DNA of 63,258 nt, counting the filler, from Neolecta irregularis DAH-3 (lineage: Eukaryota): the NCBI GenBank assembly GCA_001929475.1. It is 11 parts of 11 records of this genome, joined end to end, with 100 filler letters (N's around TTAATTAATTAA, not from the genome) between each part and the next. Parts side by side here need not be neighbours in the genome. Positions count along the whole stretch, not along the records: positions 37,380 to 46,603 come from LXFE01002357.1; 10 more parts are not named here. One strand, 5' to 3'. Shown here piece after piece: positions 3,911 through 48,050 of this stretch. A model generated the notes under the pieces. It saw only the letters and a list, made by a program, of their open reading frames with translations. It was not told the DNA's origin and searched no databases. A program made the translations under genes and the position numbers. The stretch's first letter is position 1, and every line of letters begins with the position of its first letter.

Positions 3911-4010
3911 NNNNNNNNNNNNNNNNNNNNNNNNNNNNNNNNNNNNNNNNNNNNTTAATTAATTAANNNNNNNNNNNNNNNNNNNNNNNNNNNNNNNNNN
4001 NNNNNNNNNN
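3911..4010. other. Artificial contig linker (N-run, TTAATTAATTAA with stops in all six frames, N-run)
   Basis: The same ~100-nt linker occurs at ~26862, 37280, 46604, 49658, 52240, 53879, 55973, 57149 and 58588. Confidence 0.97.
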
Positions 4011-26548: not shown

Positions 26549-26961
26549 GGTATTTTGCAATAAATTCGACAAAGTCGATGATATAACACGTGACTGTTGA
26601 ACCACAACTTTGATAAACACCTTTGGAATAAGGTAAATATTTTAACATTGAACTTTTCACTAGATATTCTAGTTTACATCCTCCATTCCGGTGGATAAAT
26701 CTATATTATACACAGCCCCACTTACTTTGATCATTCTACCTTGACGCTATTTGTACTAGTATGTGGGGACACGACTTTACCACAGTCCACAACGGCGCAA
26801 CCCCCACCAGCTTGCCACCGCCACCGCCAAAGTATCGGAACCGGCACAAGCAGCAGCAAGGNNNNNNNNNNNNNNNNNNNNNNNNNNNNNNNNNNNNNNN
26901 NNNNNTTAATTAATTAANNNNNNNNNNNNNNNNNNNNNNNNNNNNNNNNNNNNNNNNNNNN

Positions 26962-41590: not shown

Positions 41591-43097
41591 GGAGCGTATA
41601 ATAATAGAAAATCTATCAGATAACCGCAAGATACTACTTGTACCATTTTCGGATGACAGTAGCTCTACGTAAAATACGTCTTTTCAATATATATTGTATT
41701 TGAATATTTGAAGATTCGGTCGGGTGATTCAGATCGGTTAATATCTCAATAATTCTAAATTCTCAAGTCTCTCTTTCCCATCAGAGCTTTTCTTTTAATC
41801 AGCACTGAAAACCTTCTTGACATTTCAGTTGAGGTTTTCATTCAGCTTTGGCTTAAACTTCGTCATATGGGAGAGACTTAAAAACAACACCTTATTCATC
41901 GACCTCTTACATTTCTCTGCCTTGGTCATTCGGGTTGAAAAACCTATATGTCATATTCAAACCTCCAGTCGCTGCCGTACCCCGACTGGACGAAATTTGC
42001 TGTCTTCAACAAGGGGCGAAAAAGGTGTAAGAACTGTTCGAGAACCAACCTTCAGATTTCCGTTCTAGCAGTGTCATCGAGATGTGCAAATCCCATTGGT
42101 CGATAGGATTATTCTCTCTGTATGACCAACCTTGTAGGTTGCTTTCAAAGCTTTAGTGAGAGTTTTCATCATTAGGTGGTGTGGAGTTCCAGTCAGTCCA
42201 ACCGCAACTCTGGTGTGGAATTAAATCTCCATACGTCTATTTGTACACCAGATTTTAATCCTGCATGCTCTAAGAACGATGCTTAATACGATGTAATATT
42301 TCCTTGTTAAGAGTTATCTTACTTTGTTACTTTAATCCCAACAATCAGTCTTTCAGTCTGTCGTAAAGAATTACTACGAGGATATCCGCCTAAAACAATT
42401 AGAAGAAAAGGCGTTGAGAATGAAATTTTTAGGGGGAGTACACGGCGGATGAAAGGAGCACTAGTTGATTGATTCCCTATAACATAGCCGGCATATATAT
42501 TAGGCCTGTCGTTTGATTATAATCAGGGTTGGTTGAATAAACAGCACCCTTTCAGTTTATCTTCAGATTTGATCGTATATATATATCACATATAATTAAA
42601 GTTAATTTACTAAGATCCTCGAACGATCAGACAGTTGACGACAAGTCATCAGAAAAGTTAGCTTAGTCCGAGAGAGAGAGAGCTCAGTGAGATCCTAAGA
42701 CGGAATGAGGCAAGTATTTCTGGAGTGACCTTCACAAAGTTAAACATTTAGAGCGTTTTTTTTCGTTCCTGGGGCGATGGATCCTGAGGGACTTGAAGGG
42801 ATTTATCTGGATTAGCACCATGAGTATATTCATTGCGGTAATTCAGAGCATCACAGTACGTTTTCAGCAAGATTTGCTTAATGGGGAGCTTAACGGGATC
42901 GTCTTACATCAAGATATAATCAGGTCATAGTGCTAGTGTCTCACAACGGTAACAAAGCAGCATTCTCTGAGTAATATAGAATGTAGAAAGATTAAAAAGC
43001 AAAGCGGATCATAACGATCTCGATACTAAGAAACTTGGGCAAAAACACGTTCTCGCGCTNNNNNNNNNNAGCAAAGCGGATCATAACGATCTCGATA

Positions 43098-44547
43098 CTA
43101 AGAAACTTGGGCAAAAACACGTTCTCGCGCTTTAACATCGGCTAAGAAAGAATTTCCAGCCATCAACATTGTGTACTTCTGCGGGTTCAGACTCTTATAT
43201 TTTCGAATGTCCTCAAGATAAGCATCAAACAGAGGTGCAGAATCTTGTGGTCCACCTAAGATGTAAATATACTTTCTATTTCTTTATTAGTACCTTTTGC
43301 TTCAGGGTGGAACTGGGTTGACATGATGGCTCGAGTAGTATGAAACATGCCTTCGTTTGAACCATCGTTGAGATTAATAAAGAGAGGCTTCCAGTCTGGA
43401 GGAAGGGTGTTGGCATCGACTGCGTATCCATGGTTTTGACTGGTAATGTAGCACTCACCGCTAACGAGATTTTTCACGCCAATATTGTGGGCTCGATTGC
43501 CGTACTGGCTGGTTAATTTTGAAATAGACGTGACGAGCTACCTTCAGTTTGATCGTTTTTGCACCAGCTGCCAATGCAAGAAGTTGATGACCAAGACAAA
43601 TACCCATGATTGGGCCTTCATAGGATTGAAGCAGACACCGAAGAGTTTCAATGGTTTTTGTACAGTGGGTTGGATCTCCAGGACCGTTTGAAATGAAGAT
43701 CCCATCGAAAAAGTGAGCAATTTGGTGAATAGGGTAATCAAAAGGGAAGACGGTAGAATTTATTCCTCGCCTAGCGAGACATCGGAGGATATTCTCTTTG
43801 ACGCCGCAATCGATAACAGCGACATGGGTGTCTCCGCCACAATCAATGTGAAAGGGTTGTAATGTGGAGACTCGAGAAACGAGATTAACTTGATCAGAGT
43901 CGATGAATGCTGCATCATCATCAGCGTCGTATTCATCACCAATGTTGATCTTTGCAAGAGAAGATCCTTGCTCGCGAAGATAAGTAACGATAGCCCGGGT
44001 ATCAACTCCAGAGACAGCCGCTATTCCTTCTCTAGTACACCACTCACCAAGGCTTTCGACGGCAGTCCAATGAGAATATCTCAGAGCAGAGTCTGCAACA
44101 ACAATACCTGAACATTGAATGTTAGGGCTCTCGAAGAACTTTAGGAGATTGAACTCATCTCGCGCGGAAGAACTCGGAACGCCATAATTTCCTGATAGGT
44201 TAGAAATCTACGAGGTTTTGATGTACCAATGAGAGGTTGTGTAAAAACCAAGAGTTGACCCTGATAGGATGGATCTGTCATACTTTCCGGATAGCCGACA
44301 AGCGATGTAGTAAAGACTGCTTCTCCAGAGACATTCCTTTTAGCTCCAAATGAATGTCCATGGAAGATTGGTCCATTCTATAATATCAAGATAAGCTAAT
44401 TTCAGTGACTCATACTCGAATAGTGAATGTCGCTCGATCAGTCAACACAGGGTGAAATTTTGGAGGAGCTCCGGGAAGAGAGCCGTTGGCGCTCACAACA
44501 GTTGCGAAAGTTCGTTTGTGCAATAACTGCTGTAGTAAACGCAACAT
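43098..44547 (-). CDS. CPA1: Arginine-specific carbamoyl-phosphate synthase small subunit with mitochondrial presequence, multi-exon
   Basis: [16 protein letters not shown] presequence, [69 protein letters not shown]. Confidence 0.95.
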
Positions 44548-44557
44548 TGACGATGAT

Positions 44558-44668
44558 TTATGAGGAGTTTTTGAATACTGGCAGGTCAGCAGAGTCTGGG
44601 ATTACTGGAATACTATGATCAGACAAGTAGTCAATAGAAACCTGGCAGACAGATCCAAGCAATTGCAT
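44558..44668 (-). promoter_or_regulatory. Arginine attenuator peptide (AAP) uORF, 24 aa, split by a 36-nt intron (44578-44613)
   Basis: Spliced product MQLLGSVCQVSIDYLSDHIFKNSS* aligns with yeast CPA1 AAP ...DYISDHIWKTSSH and N. crassa ...DYLSDHLWRA; stop lies 10 nt before the CPA1 ATG. Confidence 0.88.
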
Positions 44669-45299
44669 GCAGTTTATGGGGGACACTGGGAAAAGCGAAG
44701 AGCAGGGTCTGGGGCAACTACTCTTTAAGCCCCATCTTTCAACACGCATGTTACACAGATAGTACACCCACATACCAACCAACGAGATCTGTCCAAATAT
44801 GCATTTTTCTGTAATATTATATATTGTAACTACAGCGAAAGCTTCAGAATATTGAGTTTCAGTGCAAAGATATACCATTGGTATACTTTACCAAAGCAAC
44901 AGATGGCGTGCAATAATATTGCAGCTTTGGGAATGCGAGTATATAAGACGGAATGAGAGAGCTACCTAATCTAAGTTCTAAGGTCACTAAGATTAGGAAA
45001 TATACCCTAGTCTTATCGTAATTCGTAACTGAACCTCGTCACTTACATTCAGAATACAACGAGTTCTTCACGACAATCCTACATGTCACTCCAAAAGATA
45101 TTGGCTAGAAGATTATGCACGTGCGTAATCACGTTCCAGCAGGTTCCAAACCGGCTACAAGGTTGCAATGGATCAACGCCATTCACACGTAAAGAAAATT
45201 GAACCCATGAATATTCTATTTAACAGATTTATATTTTCCTTGCTAAATTTCAAGCTAAGAAAGTCATTGTAACTGTAAGTAGTGAAGCGTAGGGTACAA

Positions 45300-45590
45300 A
45301 TAAGATCCAATTATATTTCCTTAGCCTTAACCTAAGTAATCAGACCTTTATGCTTAGGTTAAGATATGCTGGCTCTGCCTTTATATACTCTCTATACTAA
45401 TTGCCCTTATTTAATTCTACGCCCCGTACTGAATTGGTAAGATATATCCAGGTAACGTGTAAGCTTAACGCCAGAAGTTATAAATAAGACCAGGATATAT
45501 CTCTAGCCTAAGTATTGTAACTCCGTACAGGGACATACCTAGCCTAAGGGTTGTAACTCAGGCTAGGTAAAACTATAAACTCCGCTACTT
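45300..45590. mobile_element. LTR family G fragment
   Basis: CTAGCCTAAGTATTGTAACT and GGGACATACCTAGCCTAA motifs shared with ~54270-54400 (inverted) and 59989-60294. Confidence 0.6.
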
Positions 45591-46010
45591 ATTCCACAAA
45601 CGCCTGATTACTGTATTGGTAAGGTGTACCGACTGGGTATATCCTTACATAATGCCCCAGATATATCGTTACAGTATCTGCGACGGATTCGCTAACACTA
45701 GCATTCATATCTCCACAAAAACGAATTTTTGGAGACGACATTGTCCAATAGCAGGATACATTAGATTCGAGACTAAGTCAAGCAACAGACGAAAGAGAAA
45801 TATAAAAGAATGGGCTGAAGTACGGCCCAATCACCTAGCTTACCGAGCAAACAATGAACATGTAGAAAATGTTATCTGATTTCTGTTAAATGCTACTGTT
45901 TTAGCTTAAAGTGTATTATCTCTGCATCCTATATATAAATTAACAGGTATATACAACATATACGCCTAAGGAGTATTCAACAAAGAGACAAGATCAAAGT
46001 TACAGTGAAG

Positions 46011-46596
46011 TCAGTCTGCTTTTACCATGGTGAAAATTTCCCCAAGAATAGGGTCAAGCTCTGGCCGCTGCTCTTTTCGAATCAACTCTCTGAACCCGTG
46101 ATGTTCTCTCAATTCTTCCCATTCGCTCCTGAGATACTTCATGTACATTTTTCGTATGTCTTCGTAGGTGAAAGCGAGACCAACTTCTCCGAACAGTAAA
46201 GGCCCAATTGTGTCGGTAGTAAGGTTGGCTGAGATGTATTGGCGAGCTCTGTTTTGAAGAGACGGAAGAAGAAAATAGTCTGCTAAACAGAAGATATGCT
46301 CAGCTTCGGAGACAGATGAAAATATAATGAAGTCAGTGTAAAGATAGAGTAACACTGAGCGGAAGACAACGGGATCGGCTTTGACTTTTATCACAACATA
46401 CTCGCGATCTTTAGAAGTTGATGGAGGCGAGACAGGTGGGNNNNNNNNNNGCAAACGCCTGATTACTGTATTGGTAAGGTGTACTGACTGGGTATATCCT
46501 TACATAATGCCCCAGATATATCGTTACAGTATCTGCCACGGATTCGCTAACACTAGCATTCATATCTCCACAAAAACGAATTTTTGGAGACGACAT
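46011..46596 (-). CDS. BTB/POZ-domain protein, interrupted by a gap
   Basis: ADPVVFRSVLLYLYTD, IFCLADYFLLPSLQNRA is a BTB/BACK-like C-terminal signature; the putative 5' exon is duplicated at 45597-45747. Confidence 0.7.
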
Positions 46597-46703
46597 TGTC
46601 CAANNNNNNNNNNNNNNNNNNNNNNNNNNNNNNNNNNNNNNNNNNNNTTAATTAATTAANNNNNNNNNNNNNNNNNNNNNNNNNNNNNNNNNNNNNNNNN
46701 NNN

Positions 46704-48050
46704 TAAGCCTTCATCTGCCATTGAATCGATGGTAGTCTTCCGGTCAATAGTTTCAAAAATCTTCTTCCCAGCTCCTGCAGCAGTTGTAAATGATGTAATA
46801 TTTGGCGCGATCTGACTCATCGACATAGACCCCATTACGACGGCGAAGAAGACGTTAACGACAATACCAGCTGTAAGTTCTCCTTGAATCACCATTCGGG
46901 CACCTTCCCAAAATGCAAGTGCCTACCTTGATAAGTAATTGATAGAAAGTCAACGATACTTACGTAGGCAGAATATAGGACAAACCAAATAATTGCCCCC
47001 ATAAGCCCTAACGCAATAGATTTCTTTTTACCTTCTTTGTAGGCAAGCCTAAGGTGACCATAATACATCGCCGAAATCATTTCCTGAGTTCCGAAAGCTT
47101 GAGCGGTACGAATACTGCTGAAAACCTCCTCCGCCAAAGCCCCTCCAGAAGAATAATGATCCAGTGCGGCATTCGCAAACTTCCTGAGGTAGGTTGAAAC
47201 TGTTCCCAACGTTACACAGAGAAATGGAATTGTGGAGGATAAAACCAAAGCGAGCTTCCAGTTTTTAATAAACGCAATAATGAAGGCGCTGAAGAATGTT
47301 GCGATGGCAGTACAACAAACGGCAGCCTTTTCAGAGATACCTTCTTGGATTAGAGCGGTATCGCTGAACTTTAGTGAGATGATAGTAGTAGAGCAGATAC
47401 TTTGTTATACGCGTAGTGACTTCTCCAGCGCCGAGCTTATCAAAGTATGCGATATTTTGTCGCATAATTGCTCGCAAGTACTGCTCCCGGATTTGCTTCG
47501 TTATTCGTTCTCCTGTAAACATCCACGAAAATGTGCAGATAAATGTAGATATGAAGACAACAATAGCCTTGATTTCAGTACAAGTCAAGGCGATGCAATA
47601 CAAGATAGACGAAGTATAAAGTGTCTTTGTTAACTTGCCTTTGGAATTCATGAGCATTACCGGACCCATTTGGTCGAAAGTACTTTGAACAATCAACAAC
47701 CCCTAATATGACATGTAGATACATCGGCGAATGTATCGGTGAGCTGACCAAATACAATCGAAAGCAGGGGCGTGGATGCACCAGCTGTAGACATTAGCTT
47801 CAGGTTCATCTACTTGTTTCGTCTTCAGACCAATGCATGCTGCAACGACACCGAGGAACATTAAGGCGTAATCCAATATAGTTGCATATCGGTACAATGC
47901 GAAGTATCCAACATCGCCCACTTGAGTATTCGATTGTCGTAGAACAATGGCGCGTTCTTCAAGAGACAACTGAGCAAGTGGTCCGTCTTGAATTATCTCA
48001 AACTCGGTCGTACTAGATTCCATAGTGGTGCATTTCTGTCCCGTCCCCAT
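46704..48050 (-). CDS. ABCB/MDR-type ABC transporter, 5' part only (contig end)
   Basis: GYFALYRYAT, TGERITKQIREQYLRAIMRQNIAYFDKLGAGEVTTRIT, GISEK, AEEVFSSIRTAQAFG, AGAGKKIFETIDRK. Confidence 0.92.

Follow-up and report, generated by a model that had tools for sequence, protein, structure and literature searches.

[quoted passage not shown] The AAP, a eukaryotic nascent peptide that arrests the ribosome making it when a small molecule is present, is one of the best-studied of its kind, and CPA1/arg-2 encodes the small subunit of the arginine-specific carbamoyl-phosphate synthetase. With moderate confidence we regard the frame as the AAP uORF that belongs to the CPA1/arg-2 orthologue in a deep-branching ascomycete, its 36-nt intron being removed constitutively and its spliced 24-residue peptide being of a Phe type. 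Gene and leader lie on the minus strand of the window, as the whole stretch of 63,258 nucleotides that was analysed is called in the following; their positions are collected in Table 1.

Table 1. Features of the CPA1 locus, in positions of the window
Feature	Position	Strand	Remarks
TATA-like hexamer, weak	44940..44945	minus	consensus pattern only (script)
5' leader upstream of uORF	44669..44878	minus	in-frame ATGs 44878, 44773, 44749; two out-of-frame uORFs
uORF exon 1	44614..44668	minus	ATG 44668-44666 to codon 18 (His) and first base of codon 19; aligns without gap to positions 149-203 of the relative's contig (L001), with two synonymous differences
uORF intron	44578..44613	minus	36 nt, phase 1 in Ile19 codon (A|TA); 5' end GTATTC, 3' end CAG
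uORF exon 2	44558..44577	minus	last two bases of codon 19, Phe20-Lys-Asn-Ser-Ser, stop TAA 44560-44558
Spacer from uORF stop to CPA1 ATG (44547-44545)	44548..44557	minus	10 nt
CPA1/arg-2 gene	43098..44547	minus	five exons, 433 aa; stop TAG 43100-43098; spliced translation intact
CPA1 CDS introns	44415-44378, 44226-44192, 43541-43505, 43293-43256	minus	38, 35, 37, 38 nt; blocks absent from L001

The CPA1 locus and the intron in its leader

The five-exon model of CPA1 was assembled by hand and by script. Its largest exon (exon 3, P0001) matches ascomycete carbamoyl-phosphate synthetase small-chain and glutamine amidotransferase proteins with up to 75% identity, one of them bearing the name 'arginine specific carbamoyl-phosphate synthase subunit Arg5', and there is a 94% match to a protein without a name (P0002). 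On account of these protein matches and of the position of the small frame, in the 5' leader and on the same strand, we take the gene to be a CPA1/arg-2 orthologue and the small frame to be its leader uORF. Read without splicing, the uORF appears in the ORF listing as 36 codons from ATG 44668 to its TAA; removal of 44613-44578 by script leaves 24 codons, whose translation is the peptide that had been given in an earlier reading of this DNA from the sequence alone. That reading had also put the uORF stop 10 nt before the CPA1 ATG, which is the length of 44557-44548.

The scanning of metagenome contigs with P0002 yielded a contig of 1643 nt (L001) in which all 432 codons of a CPA1 gene are contiguous, with 236 nt of leader before them and 108 nt of trailer behind them. 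The CPA1 proteins of the window and of L001 are 91% identical (dS 0.435, dN 0.045). When L001 was compared with the window by blastn, exactly five blocks were found to be missing from L001, namely the 36 nt within the uORF and the four introns of the CPA1 coding sequence, and the flanks of the 36-nt block aligned base for base. All five blocks start with GTA, end with YAG, are 35-38 nt long and contain a branch-like motif YT[AGT]AY with its A at -9; thus 36 nt is a normal intron size for the CPA1 locus. The motifs are CTGAC, TTGAT, CTAAC, TTAAC and TTTAC, of which that of the uORF intron, CTGAC, whose A is 9 nt away from the 3' end, is the closest to the usual branch consensus.

Because all five introns are absent from it, L001 is most simply read as the transcript of a related species; it carries no poly(A) tail. 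Even were L001 intron-less genomic DNA, the contiguous form of the uORF would be a conserved reading frame. With its GT...AG ends, its branch-like motif, its local length and its absence from L001, the block 44613-44578 has the properties expected of a spliceosomal intron, and the spliced Phe-form is very probably a real product at the level of mRNA. The intron-split uORF of the sequence-only reading has therefore held up, down to the junction it named, L001 lacking exactly that block of 36 nt.

Two other accounts of these 36 nt have to be weighed. If there were no intron at all, the unspliced frame of 36 codons, which is indeed open, would be the true uORF and its likeness to an AAP after 'splicing' an accident. 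We consider this hardly credible in view of a relative whose sequence matches the flanks base for base and is without exactly those 36 nt, of the GT...AG ends, branch-like motif and local intron length of the block, and of the Pfam family Leader_CPA1, which is matched by the spliced form only and not by the unspliced 36-residue peptide. The other account accepts the intron and makes it a switch, as had been suggested from the sequence: regulated retention of an intron that is a multiple of three long (3n) and free of stops would exchange a stalling-competent peptide of 24 residues for one of 36 in which the DYLSDH core lies 12 residues off the stop. The premises are correct, since the intron has 36 nt without an in-frame stop, the retained frame has 36 codons, ends at the same stop and has no Pfam match, and of the five introns at CPA1 (36, 38, 35, 37 and 38 nt) only that of the uORF is 3n. 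Chance alone would, however, give such an intron about once in four to seven times (3n, about 1/3; freedom from stops, 0.45-0.76), the sole transcript-like sequence, L001, is spliced, and the standard local signals together with the best of the branch-like motifs argue for efficient, constitutive removal. The on/off switch is thus the part of the sequence-only reading that we do not retain, and we regard it as improbable. Were it true, regulated splicing would form a layer atop a nascent-peptide metabolite sensor, the choice being between an arrest peptide and an out-of-register peptide of 36 residues.

An alternative donor, GTAATC, which shares the acceptor (44578-44605, minus), was also considered. 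With these 28 nt removed, the uORF would be continuous in frame with CPA1; this splice was rejected because L001 shows the removal of 36 nt and because 28 nt is outside the local range of 35-38 nt.

The start of the transcript determines how much lies before the uORF. The frame is open upstream of ATG 44668, and the in-frame ATGs 44878, 44773 and 44749 would give spliced peptides of 94, 59 and 51 aa, respectively. The two out-of-frame uORFs of the leader begin at ATG 44804 (17 codons) and ATG 44735 (5 codons). In the alignment the 5' end of L001 falls near 44845, in keeping with a start on the downstream side of the TATA-like hexamer. A transcription start as far up as ~44845 would result in an mRNA with the in-frame ATGs 44773 and 44749 and with both out-of-frame uORFs, and depending on the start the peptide could therefore exceed 24 aa. 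None of the upstream in-frame ATGs and neither of the out-of-frame uORFs is conserved in L001, where the ATG equivalent to 44749 opens a frame of only 7 codons. According to a passage in PMC11550727, which cites Fang et al. 2004, it makes no difference to function where in a longer AAP the conserved residues lie, and for this reason an N-terminal extension would not by itself be expected to disable the peptide.

The surroundings of the gene bear marks of the assembly. Directly 3' of CPA1 (42998-43131, minus) a gap of 10 N (43060-43069) lies between the exact copies of a 62-nt direct duplication (43131-43070 and 43059-42998), which spans the last CPA1 codons and the stop and looks like an artefact of an assembly join. 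Between CPA1 and the neighbouring gene there are two near-identical ORF fragments (45589-45741 and 46411-46596, minus), both starting MSSPKIRFCGDMNASV and ~820 nt apart, which adjoin the N runs 46441-46450 and 46604-46703 and are, to judge from their sequence, a local repeat or another assembly duplication. Exon-sized ORFs at ~46656-47669 (minus), upstream of the CPA1 promoter region and apparently split, as CPA1 is, by very short introns, look like the transmembrane domain of a putative ABC multidrug-type transporter. The window contains 23 N runs, mostly pairs of 44 N that are 12 bases apart (e.g., 3911-3954 and 3967-4010; 26862-26905 and 26918-26961), and the regularity of these pairs suggests masking or scaffolding rather than biology.

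The spliced peptide and its relatives

The spliced peptide of the window contains the core DYLSDHIFK, with Asp as residue 13, which we take to be the yeast register, Tyr as residue 14 and Phe as residue 20. In the numbering of N. crassa, Asp12 and Tyr13 are thus present, as Asp13-Tyr14, and are followed by Leu-Ser-Asp-His; Trp19 is replaced by Phe both in the window and in L001, on which ground the element was filed as a diverged homologue and not as a functional AAP. The uORF of L001 (149-226) encodes 25 residues, which are the same as those of the window through residue 23, and its tail is one residue longer. Both peptides are of AAP-like length, the other uninterrupted uORFs having 20-25 codons (n=17, among the best 80 of 288 relatives), and the upstream in-frame ATGs could lengthen that of the window. 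The window has TTC as its Phe codon and L001 has TTT; a sequencing error of a TGG codon, which would have undone the claim of a Phe, is thus excluded by two independent sequences.

Within codons 1-23 the window and L001 differ at three positions, all of them synonymous (GGA/GGT, ATT/ATC and TTC/TTT), which by the method of Nei and Gojobori amounts to 3 changes at 14 synonymous sites and none at 55 non-synonymous ones. The backgrounds for comparison are a pS of 0.33 in the coding sequence and the leader just upstream (~44771-44669, aligned to L001 47-148), where 77 of 103 positions are identical and 26 differ; at either rate more than 10 non-synonymous changes would be expected without constraint. 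We conclude from three synonymous versus no non-synonymous changes that the amino acid sequence of the uORF, Phe included, is by this comparison maintained by selection, and we read this constraint at the level of amino acids as a dependence on the peptide sequence. Selection of this kind, as deduced from two sequences, shows the uORF to be translated and its product to matter; of what the product senses it says nothing.

Against the Pfam model PF08252 (Leader_CPA1) the L001 peptide obtains 20.7 bits (E 2.8e-4, residues 13-23 aligned), which is narrowly above the gathering cut-off of 18.5; the score belongs to the L001 peptide, to which the window peptide is equal through residue 23. Eight other AAPs from fetched loci obtain 41.8-58.5 bits, and by this measure the peptide of the lineage is by far the most diverged of those scored.

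How rare Phe is at this position was surveyed in 80 metagenomic CPA1 loci, the best 80 of 288 relatives, a sample that appears to be mostly ascomycete and says little on other phyla; the scope of the counts given below is the same. Of the 80 loci, 70 carry, shortly before CPA1, a DH-x-x-K/R element that runs into a stop; as the fourth residue of this element 69 loci, representing 62 distinct DNA sequences, have Trp, and L001 alone has Phe. Trp also occurs in two of the ten remaining loci, in variant contexts: one (L042:2590-2661) has Ser for Asp16 and obtains 45.7 bits on Leader_CPA1, the other (L015, near 2894) reads Glu-Tyr-Ile-Ala-Asp-His, with Glu for Asp12 and Ala for Ser15, and has no stop nearby. 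The eight other loci contain no element, the CPA1 match beginning there 8-262 nt from the contig end. Trp is thus found at 71 of the 72 readable loci among the best 80 of 288, the sole exception being the window's own relative, and the possibility that many known AAPs might already have Phe here found no support in these loci. Another variant, with Ala for Ser15, is seen at L029:154-225 (41.8 bits). A pattern match at position 6678 of L043 lies downstream of the CPA1 match and was dropped as spurious. No passage on Phe variants or on uORF introns was found in the excerpts of the literature that were searched; the primary literature may already list both.

The sequence-only reading had called the split uORF hidden. 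The split is real and it is ordinary: at 51 of the 70 loci with the element (best 80 of 288) one or two introns cut the uORF, so that as a kind the 'hidden', split attenuator uORF is nothing new. The 70 loci comprise 18 with an uninterrupted uORF, most of which are short, transcript-like contigs, 7 with a detached core, 44 with a split in the Asp16 codon and 1 that is cut by the contig end. In the 7 the core stands apart from the N-terminal part, the intron preceding Asp12 at the Gln11/Asp12 boundary and the acceptor being in the Asp12 codon. In the 44 the intron is in phase 1 of the Asp16 codon and has a YAG acceptor, and 41 of these contain a micro-exon of 13 nt (GAYTAYATCTCAG type, encoding Asp-Tyr-Ile-Ser plus one base) between two introns. 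Of the micro-exon's two introns one follows the Gln codon and the other lies in the Asp16 codon, as for example in L013, L035, L055 (2605-2617) and L070. The distance from the end of the first exon to the His codon is 147-474 nt in the split loci.

The intron of the window lies two codons further 3' (Ile19, phase 1), at a position used in none of the 70 loci (best 80 of 288). In a single-gene tree the CPA1 of the relative is on a long branch outside Saccharomycotina and Pezizomycotina, with weak support (80/77). Because of the position of the intron and the placement of the lineage, the uORF intron of the window is probably an independent one. Hood, Spevak and Sachs are said to have dealt with the evolution of the AAP uORF in 2007. 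For annotation the lesson is that genomes with introns of ~36 nt can hide conserved regulatory uORFs from ORF scans; most attenuator uORFs in the DNA of filamentous ascomycetes are likewise split.

The lineage departs from other AAP leaders in more than the Phe; the loss of a Gln before Asp-Tyr and the exceptional shortness of the spacer, along with the marginal Pfam score, had been missed when the uORF, its intron and the Phe were correctly described from the sequence. The residue before Asp-Tyr is Ile in the window and Gln in all 17 other uninterrupted uORFs (best 80 of 288); a Cys-Gln pair is found three residues further upstream of that Ile. After the aromatic position there are 4 residues in the window, 5 in L001 and, among the 69 Trp-type loci (best 80 of 288), 5 in all but one, which has 6. 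Since the tail of the window is shorter than that of L001, the register to the stop codon differs even between two relatives. The spacer to the CPA1 AUG is 10 nt both in the window and in L001, as compared with 33-106 nt in the 17 other uninterrupted loci, and is the shortest seen (best 80 of 288).

Possible function of the Phe-type peptide

By homology, the window uORF would be expected to stall ribosomes and to do so in dependence on arginine, and we lean slightly towards the view that the spliced Phe-form still responds in this way. As a mechanism we propose that scanning ribosomes would for the most part skip the AUG of the uORF, which has T at -3 in both species and thus a weak context, and start at CPA1, or else would translate the uORF. 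At high arginine the ribosome would be arrested by its nascent peptide at the stop codon of the uORF or close to it. With the AUG of CPA1 only 10 nt past that stop, the arrested ribosome would then stand at or over the main start and block the following ribosomes; as judged from the dimensions of the ribosome footprint, a ribosome whose A site holds the uORF stop would extend roughly as far as the CPA1 AUG. Since the uORF terminates ahead of four spliced junctions, the mRNA may in addition be exposed to nonsense-mediated decay. Over a spacer of 10 nt reinitiation is unlikely, and translation of CPA1 should therefore require ribosomes that scan past the AUG of the uORF (leaky scanning). Leaky scanning is described for CPA1 in a passage of PMC11550727.

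What the replacement of Trp means depends on the role of this residue in other AAPs. In an excerpt of PMC3130931, citing Spevak 2010, Asp12, Tyr13, 'Lys14' and Trp19 are listed as critically important. Trp-19, again described as critically important, is placed near nucleotide U2609 of the 23S/28S rRNA and compared with residues of TnaC in a section of PMC3299997, and data on the D12N exchange, which concern the role of the Asp, are given in part of PMC7038982. In favour of an AAP that still responds to arginine are the position of the uORF directly before a CPA1/arg-2-type gene, the presence of the critical Asp and Tyr (as listed in the excerpt of PMC3130931) and the aromatic side chain that Phe keeps at the position which the section of PMC3299997 places near U2609. 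Against it are a Pfam score not even half as high as those of eight ordinary AAPs, an alignment restricted to residues 13-23, and the missing Gln.

The reading to be set against this one is that the spliced uORF is homologous to an AAP and no longer senses arginine. It would then be a constitutive brake on CPA1, dependent on the peptide or only on position and acting via the 10-nt spacer and leaky scanning, or it would have an altered sensitivity or respond to another cue. Since Trp19 is called critical in the excerpts cited above and Trp is present in 71 of 72 readable loci (best 80 of 288), its replacement by Phe could abolish the arginine-dependent arrest; the marginal Pfam score (20.7 versus 41.8-58.5 bits) points in the same direction, and the shorter tail and the unique spacer suggest that the leader was rebuilt in this lineage. 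A pure positional barrier, however, needs no particular sequence, yet over 23 codons there are 0 non-synonymous changes against 3 synonymous ones at a pS of 0.33 in the coding sequence. The DYLSDH core is, moreover, intact, and Phe is a conservative, aromatic replacement of Trp. We therefore consider the loss of arginine sensing doubtful, though a good deal less so than either of the alternatives to constitutive splicing. The proposal of a natural AAP variant in the sequence-only reading stands to the extent that a diverged homologue has kept Asp and Tyr and carries a Phe that is maintained by selection; it does not extend to the splicing switch that was attached to it.

If the arginine-responsive reading is the right one, the peptide with Phe for Trp may represent another answer, found by natural selection, to the problem of arresting a ribosome from within its tunnel in dependence on arginine. 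A Phe kept under selection in two species amounts to a natural test of whether Trp is needed or only an aromatic residue, and it raises the question whether Ile for Gln, the shorter tail and the 10-nt spacer compensate for the Phe.

Comparison with known systems

With the AAPs of Neurospora crassa arg-2 and Saccharomyces cerevisiae CPA1 the window peptide shares the core Asp-Tyr-Leu-Ser-Asp-His-Ile-x-Lys; likewise its amino acid sequence is under selection, and the peptide of the relative passes the threshold of PF08252. It differs from them in having Phe for the Trp that is called critical in the excerpts cited above, and Ile for Gln. From other AAPs the lineage is set apart by its score (20.7 bits for L001 against 41.8-58.5), by the tail of 4 rather than 5 residues in the window and by the spacer of 10 nt against 33-106 nt (best 80 of 288).

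The intron-split AAP uORFs of filamentous ascomycetes, as found in the metagenomic loci, resemble that of the window in that the conserved peptide is obtained only after splicing of the 5' leader. Their introns are at Gln11/Asp12 and in Asp16, whereas the window has a single intron of 36 nt in Ile19.

Bacterial TnaC and uORF2 of hCMV gp48 are similar in that a small number of critical residues, each at a set distance from the peptidyl-transferase centre, touch nucleotides of the tunnel. Their sequences are unrelated to that of the AAP and their effectors are others; they are likened to the window peptide only for the logic of the aromatic residue.
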